A program made the position numbers and the translations under genes. From a virus, in the IMG/VR virus record IMGVR_UViG_3300023174_000084, positions 1 to 64,000 of that record: a stretch of DNA of 64,000 nt, one strand, 5' to 3'. The notes under the pieces were generated by a model. The model did not search any database. It had not been told where the DNA came from and saw only the letters and a program-made list of their open reading frames with translations. Below, piece after piece: positions 8,159 through 32,014 of the stretch. Within the stretch, counting starts at the first letter, position 1, and every line of letters begins with the position of its first letter.

Positions 8159-9955
8159 TTATTTCTCCTGTTTCTTCTTTTTAATTTTTACTTGTGTACC
8201 AATATTTCTGTCCGCATCTTTATAGGATTGCATGGGTTCAAAATTAGTAGACCCATTACGAACACCGCCTACACCCATATCAGATATAGAAATGTCGTTT
8301 TGAAAGCCGTTATATTCTTTAATTGTTTTTCTAAAACTATTAAATTCTTTTTGTTCTCTGTATGTTACATCGCCTAGACCGGACATGGGATATACTGTTC
8401 CCTGCTGGCGTGTATCAAATTCTGGACCGATGCCCGTTGTGTTTCTTAATCTTTGACTAACAGTCGGTGCATCGGTAAATCGTTTTTTATTCTTTACTTT
8501 TTCTTTGTCTTTGGAGAAGTTGGCTTCTTTTGGGACTGGTTTGATTTCGAGCGTTGGGCCTTTGGCTTCGCTATAGGTGCGGAAGGTGTAGGTTTTTGTT
8601 CGCTTACCGGCGTTGTAACGGAGGTCGTCTGCTTGGGGCTCGTTTCCTCGGTTGTCGGCGGGCAAACTATCGAGGCCACCTGCTCGGAGTTCTGGATTGG
8701 TTTTAATTTTAGTAAATTTATTAATGCTTTGAACATTTTTTTCTTCCTTAATTTTATTATCACCTATATTTAATTTACCATGCTTTTCTAACCACGATAA
8801 AGAAATGTCACCATAGGTTCGGTTTTCAATAAATTCATTGATATTTAGGTAAGTTTGAGTTATATCTTCCTCAATACTTTCCAATGAACCAGTATTGTCA
8901 ATCTGTTTAAATTTTCTAAAAGATTCTGCAAAAAATTCTTTATTTTTCTGAGCTTGCAACCACTTATCATAACGAATAGATTCGACCATCATACGAGATA
9001 ATTTGGTATTTCTTTCTTGGCTAACCTCATTGGTGGTATTGACGAATACCATCATAGTTCTATAACCAAGTTCTTCTAGTTCTTCTTTAATGTGATTAAT
9101 TTTATCGATATTGTCTGCTGGTCCATTGATAATTAATGGACCACGGTTACGAATGGCTTCTCTACGGAAGTCATTGGTTTTTTCAGATAGTTTCTGTTTG
9201 TCGGCAAGATAATCAAAAGCCTGTGTGGCATTAAGTTCTACAGCACGAGCCTCTGGTATAGCTTCACGGATAATGATATCTTTACCAGAACCAGGTCCAC
9301 CGGTCACAAAGATTGCTTTGAATAGACCACGGTTGATGTTCTCATGCAATCCCATACCTTTGCGTGTATCGTGATATAGTTCTTTGGCATGGTGGTCGGC
9401 AACGTGCTCTGGTACACCTTTTTTAAACTCTTTGTAATTACCTGAGGCTGCGTGTTGGCGCATTTTGGTACCAGACATACCTTCGGAACCTTCAGCATCT
9501 GGATCACGATGGCCAGCAGAATGAATAGTAATTTTTTTGAAATCGTAATGGCCGTGTTTACCTTTTACACCATTGTATTTGTTTAATGAATCTTTAAATT
9601 CTTTAACACGGTCAGAACCAACCACAACATGAAGGTGAGTTACACCTTTCTTATGCAATTCGGATGCATGGTGAAAAATAGATGGATGTTCTTTGGAAGA
9701 TGTTTTGAAATTTGTACCTGGTGCATATCGTTTCAGGTGTTTTACTTTTTGTTCACCAGATAGAGGATTCTTTTTGGAATCTTGTGAATGTGAAACCACC
9801 ACAGTATGTTCTGCGTTATGTTTATCTGCAACTTCTTTTACTTTATGAATAAGTTTTAAGTGGCCAGTTGTAGGAGGATTCATGCGACCAAAGGTCATTA
9901 CATGGTGTTTCTCACCTTGTTTGGTTTCTTCAACTAATTCTAAAAATGATTTCAT
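8159..9955 (-). CDS. cytidyltransferase-family (NadD-like) nucleotidyltransferase fused to a P-loop kinase-like domain
   Basis: TFGRMNPPTTGH, VVGSDR, MSGTKMR motifs; then KAIFVTGGPGSGKD Walker A. Confidence 0.8.
   Translation of the reverse strand: MKSFLELVEETKQGEKHHVMTFGRMNPPTTGHLKLIHKVKEVADKHNAEHTVVVSHSQDSKKNPLSGEQKVKHLKRYAPGTNFKTSSKEHPSIFHHASELHKKGVTHLHVVVGSDRVKEFKDSLNKYNGVKGKHGHYDFKKITIHSAGHRDPDAEGSEGMSGTKMRQHAASGNYKEFKKGVPEHVADHHAKELYHDTRKGMGLHENINRGLFKAIFVTGGPGSGKDIIIREAIPEARAVELNATQAFDYLADKQKLSEKTNDFRREAIRNRGPLIINGPADNIDKINHIKEELEELGYRTMMVFVNTTNEVSQERNTKLSRMMVESIRYDKWLQAQKNKEFFAESFRKFKQIDNTGSLESIEEDITQTYLNINEFIENRTYGDISLSWLEKHGKLNIGDNKIKEEKNVQSINKFTKIKTNPELRAGGLDSLPADNRGNEPQADDLRYNAGKRTKTYTFRTYSEAKGPTLEIKPVPKEANFSKDKEKVKNKKRFTDAPTVSQRLRNTTGIGPEFDTRQQGTVYPMSGLGDVTYREQKEFNSFRKTIKEYNGFQNDISISDMGVGGVRNGSTNFEPMQSYKDADRNIGTQVKIKKKKQEK
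8494..8736 (-). CDS. possible overprinted 80-aa Pro/Thr/Lys-rich protein
   Basis: AAGGAAG then ATG; MFKALINLLKLK amphipathic start; coincides with a GC-rich patch of atypical codons. Confidence 0.45.
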   Translation of the reverse strand: MFKALINLLKLKPIQNSEQVASIVCPPTTEETSPKQTTSVTTPVSEQKPTPSAPIAKPKAQRSKSNQSQKKPTSPKTKKK

Positions 9956-11127
9956 TTTCTAACTTTAAGTAAATTGGCTTTTGCGAATTCTGCTCTATTA
10001 ACTAATTTTGTTGGTTCACCTGCATGATGAACCACAAATCCTTCTGGTTTAGACTTCTTATTATCTATATGATGTTCCAGGCCACCTTCGTGTTGATTTA
10101 ATGTATCAACTAATACATTCTTAGCCTGTTGTAGGTGATGATGCATCTTCAATAGGTTGTTATAGTGTTCTTCATTACCTTGAATATGACTAGTATGTGT
10201 TTTTAACTCTGTCATTTTACGGGACTGAGCAGCAGGCGTTTTTAATTTACCAGCAGCTTTTTTGTAAATATCAGTAATGTGTTTTTGTAAACCTTTAGCT
10301 GTTGGTTTCTCATCTGTGCGAACAGTTTTATTGATATATGTGGACAATGCACCAGTTTCACCGCTATGAGGATGAGTTGCACGATACATTGTATCACCAT
10401 GTTTATCGTGAATTGCCTGAGCTGCTTCAATGTGTTTTTTATATTGTTCTTGTGCTTTTTCGGTATAATTTACTTTGCTTGTGTCATGTTCAGCAGACTT
10501 GTGCCACACATCTTCGTGTTGTTTAAAGTTATGAACGTCCGGATGTGGATCAGCTTTCATATCGGTAATATTTTTACCATGATACTGTGTATGTACCACA
10601 ACACCAACCTTAGCCTTTTTAATCCTATCTGCCTGTTCACCTTTGGCAGTATACCGAATGGTATTTGGAGTAAACGAAACACCACTTTTGGTTTCTTTCT
10701 TATCATCATGACCAAACATGATGTCACCTTGATACACTCCTTTCTTCGGAGCAACTTTTTTAAGGTGTAGGGCGTCTTTTAGTTTTGAAACCAATCCTGG
10801 TGCGTGTCCGTGATTCTTCTCAATATCTTTTTCTGTATAGTTAATCTTTGGATTCTTATTAAATGCGGACTTACTAGCAACAAAAAACTTGCCCGTTTCT
10901 GGATGATGTCCAAATACTACTGCCGGAGAACCATCATATTTCATGGTAAGATTGGAACTGTGGCCACCAGATTTAATTTGGTTGTGTGCAGAATTCAACG
11001 CATCTCTGGCGTGTTCAAAACCTTTTGCTCCATGAAAGAGTGGGCGATCCTCAGCATGATGAATATGCTTGAGTTTGCCATCAACTTCCTGAGTTTCCTC
11101 TTTCAGAAACGATAAAAAAGACCGCAT
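9952..11127 (-). CDS. DUF6267-like protein with ATP-dependent ligase / covalent nucleotidyltransferase motifs
   Basis: TMKYDGSP (motif I), YQGDIMF (III), PEGFVV (IV), TKLVNR (V); MRSFLSFLKE start. Confidence 0.7.
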   Translation of the reverse strand: MRSFLSFLKEETQEVDGKLKHIHHAEDRPLFHGAKGFEHARDALNSAHNQIKSGGHSSNLTMKYDGSPAVVFGHHPETGKFFVASKSAFNKNPKINYTEKDIEKNHGHAPGLVSKLKDALHLKKVAPKKGVYQGDIMFGHDDKKETKSGVSFTPNTIRYTAKGEQADRIKKAKVGVVVHTQYHGKNITDMKADPHPDVHNFKQHEDVWHKSAEHDTSKVNYTEKAQEQYKKHIEAAQAIHDKHGDTMYRATHPHSGETGALSTYINKTVRTDEKPTAKGLQKHITDIYKKAAGKLKTPAAQSRKMTELKTHTSHIQGNEEHYNNLLKMHHHLQQAKNVLVDTLNQHEGGLEHHIDNKKSKPEGFVVHHAGEPTKLVNRAEFAKANLLKVRK

Positions 11128-11264: not shown

Positions 11265-11810
11265 TTACACTACAACGAATGCTTTATTGGAATTTTTACA
11301 AACCTGATATTTACCATCAAATAGTTCTAACATAGCCCAATGAGCGCCATTCACATTACCTTTTTGAACATTCTGTCCTGGAGCTGCATCATCAAACCAA
11401 ATAATACCTCCCGGTACCATTTTAGGTAAAAGATAATTAACAGAATCAATAACCGATTTATACTGGTCACAATCTAAATGTAGAAAAGCAATATGAGGCA
11501 TTTCTACGGCACTATCTGGAAACAATCCTTTGACCACAGTAGCATAAGGTATTGCATTTTTGACGGTTTCATAGTCTGTATCATTAAAGTCACCCACTTT
11601 ATGATAGTCCATTTCAGATGTGTATGGAATACCTTCAAATGTATCATATAAAAATATTTGGCGATTTTGTTCTTCGGCTAATTTGGAAAGATGATATCCC
11701 GTTCCACCTTTGTAAACACCAATTTCAACAAAACATCCTTCTGGTGTTGTTCTAGCTTTATCAATTAATTCATTTATAATATATTGTGGTACAGCCGACT
11801 CTATTGCCAT
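11265..11810 (-). CDS. TylF/MycF-family O-methyltransferase
   Basis: FVEIGVYKGG, YDTFEG, KGLFPDS, LHLDCDQY, PGGIIWFDD. Confidence 0.85.
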   Translation of the reverse strand: MAIESAVPQYIINELIDKARTTPEGCFVEIGVYKGGTGYHLSKLAEEQNRQIFLYDTFEGIPYTSEMDYHKVGDFNDTDYETVKNAIPYATVVKGLFPDSAVEMPHIAFLHLDCDQYKSVIDSVNYLLPKMVPGGIIWFDDAAPGQNVQKGNVNGAHWAMLELFDGKYQVCKNSNKAFVVV

Positions 11811-12514
11811 TTTGTTCCTTCAAAATCTAACCAGTAATTTGATATTCTACCTTTACCTTGTAATAAGTAAAATGGTAGAGTGTGAATTAAACCTCGACTA
11901 GAACCATAGTATATCAGGTCCTTAGGTCCTCTGTCAAGCGCCCATGCAAAGTGGCTAGAACCAGTATCACCGCCAACAAAGATTTCCGCTGTGGTAATGT
12001 GGTAATAATTCTGCACAAAATTGGTAGAATACCGCCAACCCTCAAATGGGCAACTTTCTGTTGGAGCACCTTTTTTACAGATTATTTTCTCATAATCTTT
12101 GTATTCTTCGGTAGAAAATTTCTGTATGATTTGTTCATATACTGGTTGTGGCCAGTTTCGCCACACATTATATGGTGCATCAAACAATGGAAACACAGCA
12201 ATCTTCTTTTCCATAGGTGCATTATTTTTTATTTTTACCAAATCACCAGATATATCACGGAAGTCCCAAACATTTACTTTTCTCCATGGTAATGATTGGT
12301 CACCTGGTTCTGTCGAAAAATAGTTAGTCATCTTCAACATTATCTCATAAAATGTCTGACAATGTGTATCATCGCTAACATTACCAGGTTTTAAATGAAA
12401 TTGAATTAATGGATTGTTATTTGTTTTACGAATGTGTTCTAAAACATTTGCAACAGCAATCATATCACCATTACGAACTGTACCAAATGTTCCTGGTTCA
12501 ATATTGATAATCAT
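11801..12514 (-). CDS. putative GT-B glycosyltransferase (GT9/heptosyltransferase-like)
   Basis: RNGD.I N-motif, RNWP, FVGGDTGSSHFA. Confidence 0.65.
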   Translation of the reverse strand: MIINIEPGTFGTVRNGDMIAVANVLEHIRKTNNNPLIQFHLKPGNVSDDTHCQTFYEIMLKMTNYFSTEPGDQSLPWRKVNVWDFRDISGDLVKIKNNAPMEKKIAVFPLFDAPYNVWRNWPQPVYEQIIQKFSTEEYKDYEKIICKKGAPTESCPFEGWRYSTNFVQNYYHITTAEIFVGGDTGSSHFAWALDRGPKDLIYYGSSRGLIHTLPFYLLQGKGRISNYWLDFEGTKWQ

Positions 12515-13239
12515 AGAGTAACATCTTTCACATAAACCAATTTTGATTTGCGATTACCATAGTAATGGCGTTTAAAATCATATTCAACAGGATGTCCGTC
12601 CCACATTCTCATATCTTCGTCCCAACAAACAATCGTTTCTTTGTTCATTAAGTCAGCAAGAATGCCGATGCCTGTAAATGTAGTAATAAATGGCTTGGGA
12701 CTATTTTTAATCATATTCAAATTATACATCAATGATTTGTTATAATCTAAGTAAAGTATTTTTTCTGGATCAGGATTTACACCATCTTTAACTACTTGTA
12801 TTTTTCTGCGAGTATCAATCGTTGGATGATTCCATCGGTCACCAATAATATATTTACTGGTGGTTTCCATGGCAATACCATTCATAGGATCAATCAACAA
12901 TTCAAAGTTGTCATCGACTTGAAAATTAATTTGATAATGGTCACGAACCCAATTCTCGTATCGGCAAGTTTCGATTGGACGATTAGGATCGTTCTGATCC
13001 ATTCTTGTCCATGAACTAAGATTTATTGCACCATTGAAAAATACTTCATCATCAAATTCAACCGAATTGATACAAGGTTGTTGTAATAATAATTCTTTAA
13101 TACCAACAAACTTTTTCATCTCGCCACGAATAACAAGGTCAACTGGTCGACCACCATCGGATAAAGATAGACCTGATATAACAGGCAAAGCATTGGCAAA
13201 ATCTCCTAAATTTGCGGTGCAACTAACGTGTATTAACAT
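12511..13239 (-). CDS. putative GT-B glycosyltransferase (GT9-like)
   Basis: NLGDFANALP, FITTFTGIGILA. Confidence 0.55.
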   Translation of the reverse strand: MLIHVSCTANLGDFANALPVISGLSLSDGGRPVDLVIRGEMKKFVGIKELLLQQPCINSVEFDDEVFFNGAINLSSWTRMDQNDPNRPIETCRYENWVRDHYQINFQVDDNFELLIDPMNGIAMETTSKYIIGDRWNHPTIDTRRKIQVVKDGVNPDPEKILYLDYNKSLMYNLNMIKNSPKPFITTFTGIGILADLMNKETIVCWDEDMRMWDGHPVEYDFKRHYYGNRKSKLVYVKDVTL

Positions 13240-14026
13240 TATATTCCTTAAATATTATAAACCAATCATTACTATTCACTTTGTGTAATTCGAATATTTC
13301 TGGCTTTTGAAGGTAAGACATTAACAACAATGTCTGGTCATCGTCAATCAAATTATTTTTAAATAATTCTTCTAAATTGTGGTGTACCAATGCTTCAAGT
13401 ATTGGCCACATTTCTTTACCGGCAACAATACATGGTCCGGTAATATGAACATCATTATTAAAAATAACATCTTCGATATATGTGCCTTCTTTCCAATCTT
13501 TAAGATTGAAGAAATGAATTTTATCTTTGTTGAATGAGTATTGCCAATGTTTAACATTATTAAGTGTTGATTCTTCACGACAATAACCAAAATCTAGCCA
13601 AGAAACTAAATCTGTTTTAACCAAATCTTGTTTAATAGCTTGATTAACAAATGATGCTTTCAACATATTAACGAGAACGTAGTCAGCACTCCAGTATTCT
13701 GGATTTTTTACTTGCATGGGATTTATTTTAGATTGAAATTCTTGATTACTTTGAACCGTTTGAATTTCACTTCTTAATTTTTTGAAACTGTCTTGAAAAT
13801 CAACAGTCAGAATATCTGTTGGTTTATTTTGCCTAAGGAATTGTATATCTTTAACAAACTCTTTAGATGTAAAAATAACCATTGGATTCTCAAGTTTGGC
13901 CATATGACCAAATCTTTGCATATAGGTGTTTGTGGTTCGATGTAAGTAATGTGGTAATCCTTTATCAGGAGTCCAATTGCTTCGACCAATATCAAAAAAA
14001 GCAGTTACGATTGTGATATCATTCAT
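13223..14026 (-). CDS. HtrL/WlaTC-family glycosyltransferase
   Basis: ITIVTAFFDIGR, NPEY, WLDFG, IDDDQ. Confidence 0.8.
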   Translation of the reverse strand: MNDITIVTAFFDIGRSNWTPDKGLPHYLHRTTNTYMQRFGHMAKLENPMVIFTSKEFVKDIQFLRQNKPTDILTVDFQDSFKKLRSEIQTVQSNQEFQSKINPMQVKNPEYWSADYVLVNMLKASFVNQAIKQDLVKTDLVSWLDFGYCREESTLNNVKHWQYSFNKDKIHFFNLKDWKEGTYIEDVIFNNDVHITGPCIVAGKEMWPILEALVHHNLEELFKNNLIDDDQTLLLMSYLQKPEIFELHKVNSNDWFIIFKEYNVNTR

Positions 14027-14029
14027 AAT

Positions 14030-14374
14030 TTAAAAATTCGGTTTTACATATTTTTTTGTGGGAAACAATAATTCTCTTAAATTTTTCTTACAATTTTCTA
14101 ATACACTTTGTGGAGCATATTTTTCAACCCATTCCTCAATTTGTTCTTTTGTAAGCCTATCAAATTCAACAAAATTTTCTAAATTGTCTGTGGGCACATG
14201 AACGACAAAAAAAGTATTTTTATGTAGTAATGCTTCTCCATATTGTTCGGTTACAACCTTTTTTGTACCTTGCATTGTAACTCTAATTTCATAAACAACA
14301 TTTTCTTTTCCGTTCAATTCATTTTGAACACCTAGAGCATCAATAAAATATTCATATTGCACATTTTCTTCCAT
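14030..14374 (-). CDS. hypothetical protein
   Basis: AT-rich ORF; ENFVEFDRLTKEQIEEWV resembles small tail-associated phage proteins. Confidence 0.55.
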   Translation of the reverse strand: MEENVQYEYFIDALGVQNELNGKENVVYEIRVTMQGTKKVVTEQYGEALLHKNTFFVVHVPTDNLENFVEFDRLTKEQIEEWVEKYAPQSVLENCKKNLRELLFPTKKYVKPNF

Positions 14375-14375
14375 T

Positions 14376-15101
14376 TTATACCCAATAATGTTTTTTGTAG
14401 TTATTAACGATTTCAATGTAATCAGGTTGTTCTTCTACAAATTTATCAAAATCAAATCCATCATTTTTATGGTGATGTGTGTCTGTTAAATATGGGTTAA
14501 CAGAATAATCTTTACCACAAAGAAAATAATATACAACCATATAGCAGTCCATAAAACCCAATGGTAAGTATTGTTTTTGAAATGTATTATGGTTTTTCTT
14601 AAACCATTCAGTAACTCTTTCATAATTTTCCAAAAAAGTAGAAACTTTGAATATAGAACCCCCACCACAGCCATATTGATTTGTTAAGGGTCTTTTACCA
14701 GAAAATTCTTCGATACTGTCAATAATATTATCAGGAATAATATTGCCAACTTTAATATTCCACCCAGCCATTTCCCATTCTTCGTTGACTGTGATTGGTT
14801 TTTTAATCCAAACATCATCTTCTACCATCATTATATGTGAAGTATATGTTTGTTGGCAAGCCGTTTTAAACCTATCAAACCAAATTAATGTTTTATCTAA
14901 ATCATAACTTGGGTAACCAACTTTATCTTCAAAGTGATAATAATGACAGTTATATTTTTTGGCAATATCGGATAAATCTTCAGCTGCATCCGATCCTAAA
15001 AGATAATATTCATGGTGATGTTTACGAATATTATTTACAATTTTTTCAGTAGATATTTTTTTACCAGCAGATGCCAAATGTAAGAATGATACAGAAGCCA
15101 T
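14376..15101 (-). CDS. putative GT-A glycosyltransferase
   Basis: MMVEDDVW DxD-like motif, GCGGGSIF; cluster context. Confidence 0.6.
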   Translation of the reverse strand: MASVSFLHLASAGKKISTEKIVNNIRKHHHEYYLLGSDAAEDLSDIAKKYNCHYYHFEDKVGYPSYDLDKTLIWFDRFKTACQQTYTSHIMMVEDDVWIKKPITVNEEWEMAGWNIKVGNIIPDNIIDSIEEFSGKRPLTNQYGCGGGSIFKVSTFLENYERVTEWFKKNHNTFQKQYLPLGFMDCYMVVYYFLCGKDYSVNPYLTDTHHHKNDGFDFDKFVEEQPDYIEIVNNYKKHYWV

Positions 15102-16102
15102 TACATTAATCTTTCAGACCAAGTTTTAGGAGTTTTATCGGTGATAATTTCTAATGGGTAAGCATAATCAAATTTCTTAGGACCTTTTTCTTTGATATAT
15201 TCAACCGTTTCTCTAATAGACTGTTCTAGGGTTGTTTTTGTTTCATAGTTCAACAACCAACGAGCCTTATCAGCAGAACAGTCAGCGTGTTTGACCTCTC
15301 GTGGTCGGTCTGGCATATGAATGGCCTCACCTTCAAATCCTGTTGCATCTGCAACTAGTTTGGCCAAGTCTTTAATTGTTACTGTGCCATCATCAGGTCC
15401 AATATTGATAATCTGACTAACAACTTTAGGATCTAAAGCCATCTTTTCTAAACAACCAACACAGTCATCAACATATGAGAAACAACGAGTTTGTAATCCA
15501 TCACCATAAATGATTGCAGGCAGTCCACGGAGATTACGATTAATCATAATACTCATTACATTACGGAACGGATCATCATATTTTTGACGAGGACCAACAA
15601 TGTTATGTGGCACAGCAATGTTCCATTCCATACCGTGTGTTTCGCACAGAATCTTTAACACATCTTCACCTGCAACTTTAGCAACACCATATGGGTCAAC
15701 AGGTTGTGGTGTCATATCTTCGGTAAAGGGATGTGGTTGATTACCATATCGTGCCATTGAGGTACAATAGACAAATCGTTTCACTTTATTTTGAACAGCT
15801 GCAGAGATTGTTGCAACAGAAGCTTCAAAGATGTTTTTGGTAATAAAACTAGGACTGAATACAGAAAGTCCTTCATGTGCTGTAGCGGCTGTATGAATTA
15901 CTACATCAACACCTTGTAAAATATAATTCATCTTTTCAATATCACAACAATCCACAACATATAATGTAGCTTTTTTAGGTACATTGTCACGATAACCTCC
16001 AATTAGTGTATCATTACCAGACACCTCATGTCCTAATTCTAACATTCTGTCGGCAAGATGGCTACCTAAAAAACCAGCAATACCAGTAATAAAAATTTTC
16101 AT
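15101..16102 (-). CDS. NAD-dependent sugar-nucleotide epimerase/dehydratase
   Basis: ITGIAGFLGSH Rossmann motif, YGVAK catalytic motif, NIVGPRQ. Confidence 0.92.
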   Translation of the reverse strand: MKIFITGIAGFLGSHLADRMLELGHEVSGNDTLIGGYRDNVPKKATLYVVDCCDIEKMNYILQGVDVVIHTAATAHEGLSVFSPSFITKNIFEASVATISAAVQNKVKRFVYCTSMARYGNQPHPFTEDMTPQPVDPYGVAKVAGEDVLKILCETHGMEWNIAVPHNIVGPRQKYDDPFRNVMSIMINRNLRGLPAIIYGDGLQTRCFSYVDDCVGCLEKMALDPKVVSQIINIGPDDGTVTIKDLAKLVADATGFEGEAIHMPDRPREVKHADCSADKARWLLNYETKTTLEQSIRETVEYIKEKGPKKFDYAYPLEIITDKTPKTWSERLM

Positions 16103-16629
16103 GTTGTTCTCTTTAAAATAGTTAATCCGTTATTATTATGTCGTCTTTCAATCAACTGCCATTCAGGATGAGAATCAATAAATTCTTGAACTGCTGGCCA
16201 AATACCTTTACCACCAAACTCTCCACGGTCAGCAAACAATGTTGTATCGTGAAATAAAATATATTTACGGACTTTACCTGCGTGTAGTTCTAATTCCTTT
16301 TGTACCTGCTCATAGATATGTAGACTATCTACTAACATCAGGTCCGTTTCAGCAATATCCACTTTACGAGTATCATCAACATGAAGTGTTACATTACGGC
16401 CAGCATTTTTTGCTTCATCAAAAAACTCACGAATGCCTGGTTGTGGCATAAATTCATAACTATGCAATTCAACATCATGTCTTAGAAAGGCACGAGTGCT
16501 TTGAGCCCAACCAACACCAAGTTCTGTAACATGAGTGCATTGTGATGTCAATTCAGAGATAATTGGTAAATGTTCGTGAATGTCCGTATCTCTTACACAG
16601 GCATCTTGATATTCTTTTTCAAAATCCAT
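16099..16629 (-). CDS. class I SAM-dependent methyltransferase
   Basis: VTELGV, DLMLVDSLH.YE, YILFHDT, NNGLTIL. Confidence 0.75.
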   Translation of the reverse strand: MDFEKEYQDACVRDTDIHEHLPIISELTSQCTHVTELGVGWAQSTRAFLRHDVELHSYEFMPQPGIREFFDEAKNAGRNVTLHVDDTRKVDIAETDLMLVDSLHIYEQVQKELELHAGKVRKYILFHDTTLFADRGEFGGKGIWPAVQEFIDSHPEWQLIERRHNNNGLTILKRTT

Positions 16630-17477
16630 TATATTGTCCTAAATGTTAAAACTTCTTCTTGTTTATATTTTTCTTTAATGAATTGCTTCCATTCCGGTAC
16701 ACGGTCATATTGATGCACAATCGCAAACGGTTGGCCCAAAGAAGTTTTTACAATGCCGTTTTCAAATTTTGGCTCCTCTTCCAATAGATTTGGCCTAAAT
16801 GAATTAATCTTTGACGGATCAACAGTTGTGCCAGCTTGACATGCCCAACCATCTAATTGTTTTGCAAAATAAATTGAATCCTTAAATGGTTGCGTTTGAA
16901 TCAACACATTATATACTGCTTGGTCACAAATAGGAATAGGCCGGTTAATTGCATTGAATAATATGTTAAACATCATATCTTTTACATATTCAGACACACC
17001 ACCAATGGTTCCTACATTGTATATTTCATTATATTTAAATTGGTCATAAACATAAGGACCATAGGCTTGCATAAGGTTCTCGTTACCCCATGGTTCATCC
17101 ATATAACGGATGCTTTCTGAACCTGCAACTAGTTTTTTACCTTTAAGATTTAATTCTAACCAAGTGATAGGATTGGTTTGAAAATAAACATCTTTGACAT
17201 CTGTGGTAACTACATGATTGTAATTTTGCCAAGTTGTTTTGAGGAAATCATAGATTGTTAGAAAACGAGCTACATGAACTGGTGCTTTGATATCATGCAT
17301 CTTAATGATGATAAAATCACGCTTGATTAATTCACCAATTGTTTCTTGTGATGCATCACCAACGACCATTGCTTTGTCGCCAGTAAAACCACACTCATCA
17401 ATTGATTCAACCCACGGCTTTAGTTGGTTGTAGTTGTAATTTGTAAATGCACCGATTATTAAGCTTTTTGACGCCAT
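16629..17477 (-). CDS. putative GT-A glycosyltransferase
   Basis: TTDVKDVYFQ, NVGTIGG, DQAVYN, IVHQYDR. Confidence 0.7.
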   Translation of the reverse strand: MASKSLIIGAFTNYNYNQLKPWVESIDECGFTGDKAMVVGDASQETIGELIKRDFIIIKMHDIKAPVHVARFLTIYDFLKTTWQNYNHVVTTDVKDVYFQTNPITWLELNLKGKKLVAGSESIRYMDEPWGNENLMQAYGPYVYDQFKYNEIYNVGTIGGVSEYVKDMMFNILFNAINRPIPICDQAVYNVLIQTQPFKDSIYFAKQLDGWACQAGTTVDPSKINSFRPNLLEEEPKFENGIVKTSLGQPFAIVHQYDRVPEWKQFIKEKYKQEEVLTFRTI

Positions 17478-18172
17478 GGATAACTCCCATTATATTTTTC
17501 ATTCATTATTTTATTACCATTTTCAAAGAATTCTGCATTGACAGAACCTTTACCACCATCCACTCTATAACAAGTTGTGTATTCACTGGTGCAATAGAAT
17601 TTAGGAAAATGCTTTGTAATAGCCTGTAAGAATACTCTATCTTGTCCCCAGCCACCATGCCAAACACTTGCAATCTTGTTTGCTACTTCTGTTTTAATGA
17701 AGTAACAATTAGTATCTATGTGATGAACTCCGTGATATGTTGGCCAGATGCCAAGTGATTCACAGTCATCAAAACAAACAAACTTACCTTCTTTATTATA
17801 TACTTGGCGTAAAGAATAACACCAATCTAAACCTCTTATGTTGATTGTTTTAATACATTGTTCAACATGAGACCGATACAACCAATTGTCTTGGTCGAGA
17901 TAGGCAACATATTCTGTATTGATTAGGTGTGTGAAGGCGGCATAGACACGGTGACCATAAAAACCATTGGCACCGACATTGATTGGTAGAGAACAGATAT
18001 GAACTCGTGCATCATTAATAGTTGAACTCAATACTTCTAATGTTTTATCAAGGTGTTCGTCACCATCTACTACAACATAACATTCAGTAGGATGACTTTG
18101 ATTTAAAACAGATTCAACGGCAGTTTTCACCTCTGGTGAACCAGTAGTTGGTATAATCACAGTAGCAGACAT
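17459..18172 (-). CDS. glycosyltransferase family 2
   Basis: TVIIPT, AVESVLNQ, VVVDG, AYLDQDNW, IDTNC, GQDR. Confidence 0.85.
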   Translation of the reverse strand: MSATVIIPTTGSPEVKTAVESVLNQSHPTECYVVVDGDEHLDKTLEVLSSTINDARVHICSLPINVGANGFYGHRVYAAFTHLINTEYVAYLDQDNWLYRSHVEQCIKTINIRGLDWCYSLRQVYNKEGKFVCFDDCESLGIWPTYHGVHHIDTNCYFIKTEVANKIASVWHGGWGQDRVFLQAITKHFPKFYCTSEYTTCYRVDGGKGSVNAEFFENGNKIMNEKYNGSYPWRQKA

Positions 18173-29015: not shown

Positions 29016-29720
29016 ATGAACGAACTAATTTATGTTTTACTGACAACTCATCTAACAATCATCGCCGTAACTCTATATCTACATCGTAGCCAAACTCATC
29101 AAGGTGTTACATTTCATCCAGTAGTAAATAATTTTTTTCGTTTTTGGTTATGGTTAACCACAGGTATGGTTACAAAACAATGGGTAGCCATTCATCGTAA
29201 ACACCATGGTATGACCGACCAAAAAGGTGACCCACATTCACCTCAATTATTTGGTATCTGGAAAGTTTTATTTGGTGGTGCACTATTATATAATACAGCC
29301 AGTAAAGATACTCTAATGGTTAATGCGTTTGGTAGAGGAACACCAGATGATTGGATGGAAAAAAATGTATATAGCAAACACAGTAGATTAGGAATTACTT
29401 TGTTATTACTAATTAATTTACTTTGTTTTTCTTGGTGGGGTTTACTGATTTGGGGTATTCAAATGTTGTGGATACCTTTGTTAGCTGCAGGTGTAATCAA
29501 TGGAATTGGTCACTATTGGGGGTATAGAAATATCGAAACAAGAGAATCATCTAGAAATATTTTCCCTATTGGTCTTATTATTGGTGGCGAAGAGCTTCAC
29601 AATAATCACCATGCTGATGCTGGTTCTGCCAAGCTTAGTAGGAAGTGGTTTGAATTAGATATTGGTTGGTTCTATATTAAATTTTTAGAGAAACTTAAAC
29701 TAGCAACACTCAAGCATTAA
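29016..29720 (+). CDS. membrane fatty-acid (delta-9-type) desaturase
   Basis: three His boxes HRSQTH, HRKHH, HNNHH; DPHSP; DIGW. Confidence 0.92.
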   Translation: MNELIYVLLTTHLTIIAVTLYLHRSQTHQGVTFHPVVNNFFRFWLWLTTGMVTKQWVAIHRKHHGMTDQKGDPHSPQLFGIWKVLFGGALLYNTASKDTLMVNAFGRGTPDDWMEKNVYSKHSRLGITLLLLINLLCFSWWGLLIWGIQMLWIPLLAAGVINGIGHYWGYRNIETRESSRNIFPIGLIIGGEELHNNHHADAGSAKLSRKWFELDIGWFYIKFLEKLKLATLKH

Positions 29721-30033
29721 AAGAAGAACCACAACCACAGGTAGATTTGGCGTTTGGATTACTGATAACGAATTGTGAATTAAATTTTTCTTCTTTATAA
29801 TCCAATGTTGCACCTTGTAGGTACTGAGAAGATATTACATCAACTACTATTTTGATTCCTTCATTCTCAATTACAAAATCATCTTCAGCAATTTCTTCCT
29901 CAAAAGTAAAACCATATTGATAACCAGAACAACCACCACCTTGAACAAACATTCTCAAAGCTCCATTCGGTAGTTTTTCTTCTACCAGTAAATCACGAAC
30001 CTTGTTAATTGCACTTGCAGTTATTGTTATCAT
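29710..30033 (-). CDS. erpA: A-type Fe-S carrier (ErpA/IscA family)
   Basis: GGGCSG.QYGF, GATLDY, NPNA..TCGCGSSF. Confidence 0.9.
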   Translation of the reverse strand: MITITASAINKVRDLLVEEKLPNGALRMFVQGGGCSGYQYGFTFEEEIAEDDFVIENEGIKIVVDVISSQYLQGATLDYKEEKFNSQFVISNPNAKSTCGCGSSFNA

Positions 30034-30403
30034 GTTTTCCTTTGTAATCGTTTATTGCAGCCTTAATAGCGTCTTCCGCAAGGATTGAACAATGAATCTT
30101 AACTGGCGGGAGTGAGAGTTCTTCTGCAATTTGAGTGTTCTTAATTGATGCAGCCTCGTCCAATGTTTTACCTTTGACCCATTCCGTGACAAGCGAACTA
30201 CTTGCAATGGCTGAACCACAGCCGTATGTTTTGAATTTTGCATCTCTAATAATTCCATCTTCTACTCGTATTTGTAGTTTCATAACATCACCACATGCTG
30301 GTGCACCAACCATACCGGTACCAACATTAACATCACCTGAATCTAATTTTCCTACATTGCGAGGATTTTCATAGTGGTCTATAACTTTATCTGAATATGC
30401 CAT
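30005..30403 (-). CDS. iscU: Fe-S cluster scaffold IscU
   Basis: MAYSDKVIDHYENPRNVG, GAPACGDVM, GCGSAIASSS, LPPVKIHCS. Confidence 0.96.
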   Translation of the reverse strand: MAYSDKVIDHYENPRNVGKLDSGDVNVGTGMVGAPACGDVMKLQIRVEDGIIRDAKFKTYGCGSAIASSSLVTEWVKGKTLDEAASIKNTQIAEELSLPPVKIHCSILAEDAIKAAINDYKGKHDNNNCKCN

Positions 30404-31131: not shown

Positions 31132-31207
31132 TGGTGCCCTCACCATGATTCGAACACGGGACCTACTGATTACAAATCAGTTGCTCTACCGGCTGAGCTA
31201 TAAGGGC
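31132..31207 (-). tRNA. tRNA-Thr(TGT)
   Basis: canonical 76-nt cloverleaf, loop TTTGTAA, TTCGAAT T-loop, CCA. Confidence 0.9.
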
Positions 31208-31208
31208 A

Positions 31209-31373
31209 TTATACTGATTTTCTTGCGATTGCGTTTTTAATTTTTGCTTTGATTTTTGGCTTACTCGTTTCATCTAACATCTTCGTTAGTTGAGCAATGT
31301 TTAGTGGACCTAATCTTGGTTTGCCATTTTTAGTCAACATTGGATTTTTCTTTTTAAATTTTGAAACTGCCAT
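31209..31373 (-). CDS. 54-aa highly basic protein (not in ORF track)
   Basis: MAVSKFKKKNPMLTKNGKPRLGPLN...; AAGGA RBS; lies between two tRNA genes. Confidence 0.6.
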   Translation of the reverse strand: MAVSKFKKKNPMLTKNGKPRLGPLNIAQLTKMLDETSKPKIKAKIKNAIARKSV

Positions 31374-31390
31374 GATATAGTCCTTGAAAG

Positions 31391-31460
31391 TGGAGCGGTG
31401 GTCTAGATTTGCACTAGATGAGTAAGTTGGACACCTACTCTGGTTCTATACCCCGACCGC
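31391..31460 (-). ncRNA. non-canonical tRNA-Gly(TCC)-like RNA
   Basis: GCGGT/ACCGC acceptor stem plus U73 and CCA, 7-bp stem with TGTCCAA loop, TCTAG/CTAGA T-stem with TGCAAAT loop, 3-bp D-arm. Confidence 0.75.
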
Positions 31461-31468
31461 ATAATGAA

Positions 31469-31497
31469 ATTATAACATTATATAGGTTGATTGTCAA
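31469..31497 (-). promoter_or_regulatory. sigma70 promoter driving the tRNA-Gly-like RNA
   Basis: TTGACA-17-TATAAT with TGn extension; -10 box ends 8 nt before the RNA 5' end. Confidence 0.88.
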
Positions 31498-32014
31498 TAG
31501 CTATTTGTGGTATATTTCGCCAAGCAATTGGTTCTGGTGTTAATGGTGCATCCGGATTACGAACATCACTAAACACTTCCCATAATTTTTCTTTAATAGC
31601 AAACTTGGTAAATAAACCCGATGATAAACCAAAAGCTTCAACTTCCCATGGTTCATCATAATAATTTAAATTTTCTGTAATTCTTTGGCCACGCCAACGG
31701 GTGCCATACTCATTCATTTCATTATAGGCATATTGTTTAACATGAACCATTTCATGGGCTAATGTTTCCAATATGTCATGTGAACCTATAATAGGATTCA
31801 ATTCTATTTGAAATTCTCTAGGTTTATTACTTTCGTTATAATTTAACACATCAGCATAACCTAAAACATCCAACTTTGAGTCAAACTTGATCCGAACATA
31901 AATGTTTTCCAACATTTTCGGTGTCATTAATTGTTCAGCATAAAAAAGAGCAGCTTTCTTCACAAAAGGGCGAAAGCGCTTTTTATCGGGACATCCGATT
32001 ATACTGAGCTGCAT
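31478..32014 (-). CDS. zinc metallopeptidase-like protein
   Basis: TLAHEMVHVKQ plus PWEVEA. Confidence 0.75.
   Translation of the reverse strand: MQLSIIGCPDKKRFRPFVKKAALFYAEQLMTPKMLENIYVRIKFDSKLDVLGYADVLNYNESNKPREFQIELNPIIGSHDILETLAHEMVHVKQYAYNEMNEYGTRWRGQRITENLNYYDEPWEVEAFGLSSGLFTKFAIKEKLWEVFSDVRNPDAPLTPEPIAWRNIPQIAIDNQPI

Follow-up and report, generated by a model that had tools for sequence, protein, structure and literature searches.

Genomic context of the miniature tRNA-like RNA

The stretch of DNA analysed here, referred to as the window, comprises the first 64 kb of a 115,580-bp IMG/VR viral record with an estimated completeness of 68%. Its source is an uncultured T4-like phage from freshwater with a G+C content of 35%. 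The record carries a T4-like gene set (RegA, clamp loader, clamp, gp32, UvsX, UvsY, UvsW, gp59 and a DnaB-like helicase) together with T4-type baseplate and tail-tube proteins, a GroES-like protein, a dCMP deaminase and a peptide deformylase. On the minus strand of the window we found a miniature tRNA-Gly-like RNA, hereafter the mini, a promoter directly before it, and two genes of the DruA family (Table 1).

Table 1 Position of the mini and of the features discussed with it (window coordinates)
Feature	Position	Strand	Properties
Sigma-70-type promoter TTGACA-N17-TATAAT	31469..31497	minus	12/12 match; TG extension before the -10 box
Type A mini tRNA-Gly-like RNA	31391..31460	minus	70 nt; loop UGUCCAA; encoded CCA
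54-aa lysine-rich ORF	31209..31373	minus	ORF list; Shine-Dalgarno AAGGA at 31381-31385
Canonical tRNA-Thr(UGU)	31132..31207	minus	ARAGORN and Rfam, 69.8 bits
DruA-family protein (PF14236, formerly DUF4338), long paralog, 421 aa	39433..40698	minus	Pfam E 1.6e-20, 74.3 bits; candidate user of the charged mini
DruA-family protein (PF14236), short paralog, 368 aa	19754..20860	minus	Pfam E 8e-9, 35.4 bits; adjoins the DnaB-like helicase gene

The initial annotation of this DNA had placed the mini as the first element after a perfect TTGACA-17-TATAAT promoter, and this placement holds at all 12 box positions. The TTGACA box occupies 31497-31492 and, 17 nt further on, the TATAAT box occupies 31474-31469. 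The first nucleotide of the mini, G1, lies 8 nt past the -10 box, and transcription would be expected to start 0-3 nt before G1. Beyond the 3' end of the mini, the same strand carries in order a Shine-Dalgarno sequence, the 54-aa ORF, the tRNA-Thr and the GroES-like gene. A Pfam search with the 54-aa ORF gave no match, and no terminator-like site was called between the mini and this ORF. The tRNA content of the whole record is limited to tRNA-Met (twice) and tRNA-Thr; neither a canonical tRNA-Gly nor a second copy of the mini was found in its 115,580 bp. GGA makes up 19% of the record's glycine codons.

The tRNA region is adjoined by auxiliary metabolic genes, a fatty-acid desaturase beside IscA-like and IscU-like iron-sulphur assembly genes (29016-30403). 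Elsewhere in the window, a 598-aa protein with a cytidylyltransferase-like domain and a Zeta-toxin-like kinase domain (8159-9955) is adjoined by a DUF6267 protein (9952-11127). A run of methyltransferase, glycosyltransferase, HtrL/YibB-like and NAD-dependent epimerase/dehydratase genes follows at 11265-18172; the family matches come from a pooled scan rather than from individual ORFs, and the run points to sugar chemistry. One ORF of a pooled set matched PF18909, the dATP/dGTP diphosphohydrolase N-terminal domain (E 2.5e-36). The record also encodes, outside the window, a NodU/CmcH-type carbamoyltransferase (record positions 111860-113527; L179 12268-13932). The Pelagibacter phage HTVC008M carries such a gene too, annotated 'Nol-like carbamoyltransferase'.

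Sequence and fold of the mini

Read on the minus strand from 31460 to 31391, the mini divides into segments of 7-1-3-5-3-1-7-7-7-1-5-7-5-7-1-3 nt, and its sequence agrees letter for letter with that given in the initial annotation. The acceptor stem is formed by the pairs G1-C72, C2-G71, G3-C70, G4-C69, U5-A68 and G7-C66 and contains one mismatch, C6.C67. A single nucleotide, G8, links it to the D arm, which has a 3-bp stem and the loop AUAGA with one G. The anticodon arm consists of a 7-bp stem and the loop UGUCCAA, with G33 and A37. It is followed by a 1-nt variable region and by a T arm with a 5-bp stem and the loop UGCAAAU. The 3' end is U73 and a CCA that is encoded in the DNA. Each loss or remodelling that had been claimed for this RNA (of U8, the D-loop GG, U33, the T-loop TTC, a 7-bp anticodon stem and a 1-nt variable region) is present as stated. 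Its stems were also said to pair almost fully, and they do; the C6.C67 mismatch is a detail that had not been spelled out.

Compared with a canonical tRNA, the mini lacks U33, G18G19, T54-Psi55-C56, a 5-bp anticodon stem and a 4-5-nt variable region. The purine at position 37 is present, and the 7-bp acceptor stem, 5-bp T stem, discriminator and CCA are those of a canonical tRNA, with the fixed C6.C67 mismatch. The cloverleaf is the minimum free energy fold of the mini (-25.5 kcal/mol, z = -3.73), and none of 200 shuffled sequences was equally stable.

Standard tRNA searches overlook this RNA. ARAGORN made no call in its standard, relaxed or mitochondrial modes, as had been predicted, and Rfam was likewise blank: in a search of 31300-31560, RF00005 (gathering threshold 29 bits) gave no match to the mini even at E <= 10. 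By BLAST, its 70 nt had no match among cultured phages, and the 2.1-kb region around it matched them through canonical tRNAs only.

Two types of mini occupy one slot in related phages

To place the mini in its family, we gathered 56 related viral loci through an upstream SprT-like gene, and not through the RNA itself. In 43 of the 56, the same slot, with a promoter before it and a Shine-Dalgarno sequence and ATG after it as before the 54-aa ORF here, is filled by one of two types of mini. Type A is 70 nt long and has the loop UGUCCAA, and type B is 67-68 nt long and has loops such as AUACCCU, AUUCCCU or ACACCCU. Whichever type is present, each of the 43 syntenic loci shown keeps the promoter in front of it. 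Because the flanking protein is ~91% identical between loci with type A and loci with type B, the two types can be regarded as exchangeable cassettes. They also occur together, in three loci (L053, L110 and L118). Our own model of the RNA (R1) scores the mini of the window at 100.1 bits, and this is the sole such match in the 115.6-kb record.

A pattern scan of IMG/VR returned more than 118 stretches, in which ~56 distinct sequences are members of the family. The family-like share of the viral pattern matches is over half, compared to none among the 120 matches listed from bacterial genomes, and on these matches the family appears to be phage-only. We found no published description of it in the literature.

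In at least 14 loci, type B is followed after 5-8 nt by a canonical tRNA-Gly of 74 nt, and in other phages minis are located inside tRNA arrays. One phage (L066) has 24 tRNAs, including both Gly(GCC) and Gly(UCC), plus a mini. A role beyond ordinary decoding is suggested because type B precedes a canonical tRNA-Gly and because the phage with 24 tRNAs nevertheless keeps its mini.

The type A model gives canonical tRNA-Gly genes 30-36 bits, in line with a descent of the minis from tRNA-Gly. The anticodon loop of type A differs from the UUUCCAA loop of a canonical phage tRNA-Gly(UCC) (in L050) only by U33G, and its T loop, UGCRAAU, differs from the standard UUCRAAU only at position 55.

Two further elements of 69-71 nt (L109 2496-2564 and L139 314-384) have GCGG...CCGCUCCA ends, a UGCAA T loop and a CC-containing loop. 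They lie in G+C-rich viral contigs, one of which is classed as a provirus. Against the type A model their scores are 26-34 bits, and ARAGORN makes no call at either. A search for DruA in one of the two records found none. From their sequences, these elements may be distant members of the family or an independent case.

Selection on structure and on the presumed charging positions

Among the 16 distinct type A sequences, 95% of the cells are paired and 5 pairs have changed on both sides. None of 500 shuffles reached this pairing or covariation score, and controls slid along the sequence drop to 28-45% paired. The anticodon and T stems of type A are 100% paired. C6.C67 is invariant, next to the pair 5-68 that alternates between U-A and A-U. 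In type B (28 distinct sequences), 96.4% of the cells are paired and 12 of 22 pairs have changed on both sides; in its anticodon stem alone, 7 of 8 pairs have changes on both sides. Compensatory base changes are thus seen in every stem of both types. It had been argued from the pairing of the single sequence that the mini is not simply decaying, and the covariation, the existence of two paralog types and the kept promoter strengthen that argument.

The positions given in the initial annotation as the bacterial GlyRS identity set are G1-C72, C2-G71, G3-C70, U73, C35 and C36. All of them, along with CCA, are invariant in every member of types A and B, two very different paralog types. The ends of members found by pattern are set in part by the search pattern; the syntenic loci are free of this bias, and the acceptor end and U73-CCA are identical across all of them. 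The anticodon loop is more varied. Among 53 distinct 7-nt loops, C35 and C36 are each present in 53. Position 33 is U in 31, G in 16 and C in 6, position 34 is A in 29, U in 23 and C in 1, and position 37 is C in 33, A in 19 and U in 1. Type A invariably has G33, and A34 is combined with a pyrimidine at position 37 in most type B members. Judged by these alignments, the conservation fits charging and not decoding: the identity positions are fixed and positions 33, 34 and 37, which matter mainly in decoding, drift.

The core of the molecule has been rebuilt. In comparison with canonical tRNAs, the anticodon stem has gained two pairs, which take the place of one D-stem pair and of most of the variable region. 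AUAG is retained in the D loop across the family, and the T loop reads NGCRWAK, with UGC or AGC in all members. At the T-stem pairs 49-65, 50-64 and 51-63, where weak EF-Tu pairs are a trait of the staphylococcal non-proteogenic tRNA-Gly, type A has U-A or C-G, C-G or U-A, and an invariant U-A, respectively. The canonical phage tRNA-Gly beside type B also has A-U, U-A and U-A there, so that these pairs do not discriminate. Positions 32 and 38 covary in the minis (A-U, G-C, U-A). This covariation is real; we dropped it as an argument against decoding since normal tRNA-Gly also pair there.

DruA-family genes as candidate partners

Both DruA-family proteins of the window score above the Pfam cut-off for PF14236 (27 bits), and both genes lie on the same strand as the mini. 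PF14236 is present in 21 of 22 related records, including HTVC008M, and most of these records have the long and short paralogs together. In the subclade of the window, the mini lies ~8 kb downstream of the long paralog (DruA-long). The two are much closer in a diverged subclade of eight loci (L064, L079, L110, L111, L118, L119, L123 and L134), in which the mini starts 26-130 nt past the stop codon of a DruA-long ortholog that is 60-66% identical to that of the window. Behind DruA these loci have type A, type B, or both in the order B, A. A promoter of its own precedes the mini there, and in most of the eight the mini is followed by a hairpin and then a fresh promoter for the next gene. The hairpin, TGTTGT...ACAACA and sometimes tandem, separates the mini from the next promoter in six loci (L064, L079, L110, L118, L123 and L134) and could be a terminator specific to the clade or a site where a protein binds.

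An AlphaFold (AF2) model of DruA-long has a pLDDT of 94.9 and shows a GNAT fold over residues ~103-364. Its top match by VIA-align is the phage Mu protein Mom (8bv8_A; Z 9.9, rmsd 4.1, 184 of 222 residues aligned). SpeG and AAC(6')-Ib align with Z 9.0-9.4 over ~147 residues, which by the rule of the tool is a tie with Mom. No sequence homology between DruA and Mom was detectable by hhalign, including with a 28-member Mom alignment (probability 0.1-1.7%); the two have in common a short stretch, QRG(V/I)Y(L/F), that is not significant. Searches of PDB chains with both DruA proteins and with the DruA profile gave nothing meaningful by sequence. The Mom family itself (PF25680/PHROG) had no match in the record at E <= 10, nor at E <= 1 in five relatives, two of them complete. 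FemAB (PF02388) had no match in the record at E <= 1, and Acetyltransf_1 was also absent.

The link between DruA and the mini is circumstantial. An unbiased clustering of the genes within 6 kb around the minis returned the usual T4-like early and replication genes only. The co-occurrence of DruA and mini could reflect shared ancestry, since it is confined to a single phage group whose members nearly all carry both genes. No mini was found in 44 further DruA loci with 4-kb flanks, a blank that is uninformative because the mini lies ~8 kb from DruA in the clade of the window. For a diverged DruA representative (P0138), no viral relatives were found. DruA-family genes occur widely among the T4-like phages of SAR11 and Synechococcus, and cyanophages provide examples of DruA-like genes without minis. 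One depositor annotated the DruA homolog of S-SCSM2R as 'methylcarbamoylase mom'.

Cultured relatives and a possible evolutionary series

The Pelagibacter phages Mosig and HTVC008M encode DruA-long orthologs with 59% and 56% identity, respectively. Each also has, 4-6.5 kb downstream of this gene on the same strand, a 74-nt tRNA-Gly(ACC). Like the mini, this RNA has GCGG...CCGC-U-CCA ends and a non-canonical T loop and belongs to the same phage group; unlike the mini, it has an anticodon stem of the normal 5 bp and, with U33...A37, a canonical loop. The HTVC008M copy is called by ARAGORN and the Mosig copy is missed. In Mosig, the phage in which we checked for a promoter, it has its own TTGACA promoter.

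A MazG-domain gene directly follows the DruA-long ortholog in Mosig. From position 91140 of HTVC008M (L181 1501-1640), the tRNA-Gly(ACC) with its odd elbow is followed by a Shine-Dalgarno sequence and a small ORF, the start of which looks like ribosomal protein S21. In contrast, the ORF behind the mini in the window is the unrelated, lysine-rich one of 54 aa.

Further out, in ~25 T4-like phages of Synechococcus (e.g. L428 and L429), the clamp-loader genes gp44 and gp62 have a DruA-like gene between them. In one of the cyanophages, S-SSM7, a canonical tRNA-Gly(UCC) lies 3 kb downstream of the DruA-like gene; in S-CAM9, which also has a DruA-like gene, no tRNA-Gly-like match was found. Taken together, these forms suggest a series from canonical tRNA-Gly through the odd-elbow 74-nt form to types B and A, in which the 74-nt form of HTVC008M and Mosig looks like an intermediate.

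Discussion

Comparison with known systems. In the non-proteogenic tRNA-Gly of staphylococci, the T-loop TTC is replaced by TGC or TGT, and these RNAs are poor binders of EF-Tu and the ribosome (PMC7826273). They are tRNA-Gly(UCC) paralogs kept beside the normal ones, charged by GlyRS and without pseudouridine 55, and in S. aureus and S. epidermidis NP1-NP3 are the glycyl donors for FmhB, FemA and FemB (PMC7826273). This precedent had been given correctly in the initial annotation. Type A has UGC at the same site of the T loop and a D loop without GG. The staphylococcal RNAs are full-size, however, whereas the core of the mini is rebuilt, with a 7-bp anticodon stem, a 1-nt variable region, a 3-bp D stem and G33. 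The mini is moreover borne by a phage, outside the staphylococcal lineage, in a record without a Fem-family gene. It may work like these RNAs, but is not a member of their group.

A second precedent is Mom of phage Mu, a GNAT-fold enzyme shown in 2026 to transfer glycine from Gly-tRNA-Gly to DNA (PMC13219725). Mom uses host tRNA-Gly, with all three isoacceptors serving, and its authors speculate that recognition is mainly of the acceptor end (PMC13219725). TacT is cited in the same paper as another GNAT with Gly-tRNA-Gly as substrate; the paper makes no mention of a phage-encoded tRNA or of DUF4338 (PMC13219725). The likeness to the present case is a phage GNAT fold, Mom being the nominal top match of the DruA-long model in a tie with ordinary acetyl-CoA GNATs. 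The difference is that the Mom system brings no tRNA of its own, whereas here the RNA is phage-encoded and the candidate enzyme, DruA, has no detectable sequence homology to Mom.

Compact tRNAs that translate are the third comparison. The tRNAPyl has a one-nucleotide linker, a 5-base D loop without GG, no T-Psi-C and an anticodon stem of six pairs, and works with the normal translation machinery (PMC7609411). Both tRNAPyl and mammalian mitochondrial tRNA-Ser(UCN) are like the mini in their 1-nt linker between acceptor and D stems, small D loop, long anticodon stem and short variable region. Their stem of 6 bp, variable region of 3 nt and decoding-competent loop set these proven translators apart from the mini, with its 7-bp stem, 1-nt variable region and G33. 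Compact tRNAs of this kind do translate, so that the exclusion of the mini from the ribosome is an inference.

A possible dedicated glycyl donor. On the evidence of its alignments, the mini is a selected, structured RNA, derived from tRNA-Gly, with its own promoter. As an explanation of what it does, we tentatively prefer a functional small RNA that arose from a phage tRNA-Gly(UCC) gene, is glycylated and supplies a private pool of glycine with DruA-family proteins as its users; we regard this as a substantial possibility, not as a probable outcome. Judged by comparison, the mini is transcribed from its own strong, early-type promoter and folds as a compact cloverleaf that retains the acceptor end and C35-C36. 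Host glycyl-tRNA synthetase would charge it, and it may be kept largely off EF-Tu and the ribosome by G33, by its remodelled core and by the fixed C6.C67 mismatch. Because it would be largely kept from this traffic, its glycyl ester could offer activated glycine, as a private pool, to an enzyme of the phage. The strongest candidates for that enzyme are the two DruA-family proteins, putative GNAT-fold acyltransferases that might work like Mom or the Fem transferases. DNA is one possible acceptor of the glycyl group, because the DruA genes sit among replication genes. By analogy with Mom, and with the Fem transferases and their private tRNAs, the glycyl ester of the mini may feed these GNATs, a step that is speculative; a counterpoint is that in the window DruA-long lies 8 kb away from the mini, which has its own promoter. 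The fuller proposal, that mini and DruA-family GNATs constitute a self-supplied system of tRNA-dependent glycyl transfer in abundant aquatic T4-like phages, with their own non-translating Gly-tRNA, is doubtful at this stage.

Alternative readings. The mini could instead be a working, compact elongator tRNA-Gly, with a build that would, as in tRNAPyl or mitochondrial tRNA-Ser(UCN), still suit EF-Tu and the ribosome, and with an altered anticodon arm that would resist host nucleases or toxins aimed at normal tRNA-Gly and so sustain phage translation. Every variant keeps an NCC (glycine) anticodon in a 7-nt loop, and the arm lengths are near canonical: 7 + 5 bp for acceptor and T stems, and 7 + 3 bp for anticodon and D stems against 5 + 1 + 4. 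The similarly built tRNAPyl translates normally (PMC7609411), the type A loop departs from the canonical one at position 33 only, and the marine 74-nt form still has the 5-bp stem and the U33...A37 loop. Because the record has no canonical tRNA-Gly, a role of the mini in decoding GGA, with its 19% share, is conceivable. However, type A always has G33 and type B mostly has A34 and a pyrimidine 37; type B sits beside a canonical tRNA-Gly(UCC), a mini is kept despite the full tRNA set of L066, and UCC reads only ~20% of the phage's glycine codons. We therefore consider an elongator unlikely, if still worth keeping in mind.

A decoy would put the same conserved features to a different use. Here the mini would occupy a host factor aimed at tRNA-Gly or Gly-tRNA-Gly, such as a GNAT toxin of the TacT or AtaT2 type, a nuclease of the anticodon or acceptor end, or a sensor of uncharged tRNA, and would deliver no glycine. 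Such factors, like GlyRS, recognise the acceptor end and CC, both of which are kept; the strong promoter of the mini and the apparent restriction of the family to phages (none of the 120 bacterial pattern matches listed, against more than half of the viral ones) are also in line with a decoy, and TacT is a GNAT that uses Gly-tRNA-Gly (PMC13219725). But a stoichiometric decoy is weak against catalytic toxins, there is no candidate host factor to name, and the retention of types A and B in the same phage is left unexplained. This makes a decoy quite improbable in our estimation.

In the window, the mini heads a transcript that runs without a terminator into the 54-aa ORF, the tRNA-Thr and the GroES-like gene, as would a tRNA-like signal for RNase P or RNase Z that sets the 5' end or stability of the downstream mRNA and has no role as an RNA itself. 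Yet the minis of the eight diverged loci have their own promoter, mostly with a hairpin and a fresh promoter after them, minis lie within tRNA arrays in other phages, and a processing signal would not require invariant C35-C36, U73 and an encoded CCA. Given these stand-alone units in the sequences, such a signal is very improbable, and nearly excluded. A related idea, that the loop of the mini pairs in cis with the downstream Shine-Dalgarno sequence, was set aside, since other phages have the mini as a transcription unit of its own. Finally, a decaying tRNA-Gly pseudogene would account for the rejection of the mini by tRNA finders and Rfam, but is refuted by the covariation counts, with compensatory changes in all stems of dozens of members, two conserved paralog types and a conserved private promoter, and is hardly credible.

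Implications. Phage tRNA genes are usually viewed as helpers in codon usage or as replacements for tRNAs cut by the host. The mini family is a tRNA gene rebuilt with only its charging signals fixed, widespread in uncultured freshwater relatives of SAR11 phages and unseen by tRNA finders and Rfam. If the mini is charged and stays off the ribosome, it would be a viral counterpart of the staphylococcal cell-wall tRNAs, and phages could then carry their own supply of an activated amino acid for a non-ribosomal reaction. The question is timely because Mom of phage Mu has just been shown to modify DNA by way of Gly-tRNA-Gly. Were DruA-family GNATs indeed supplied by the mini, a phage could modify DNA or another target while sparing protein synthesis from competition, and this would provide a first hint from biochemistry as to DruA in Druantia, a bacterial defence system. 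The minis offer a testable lead to the activity of the DruA family.
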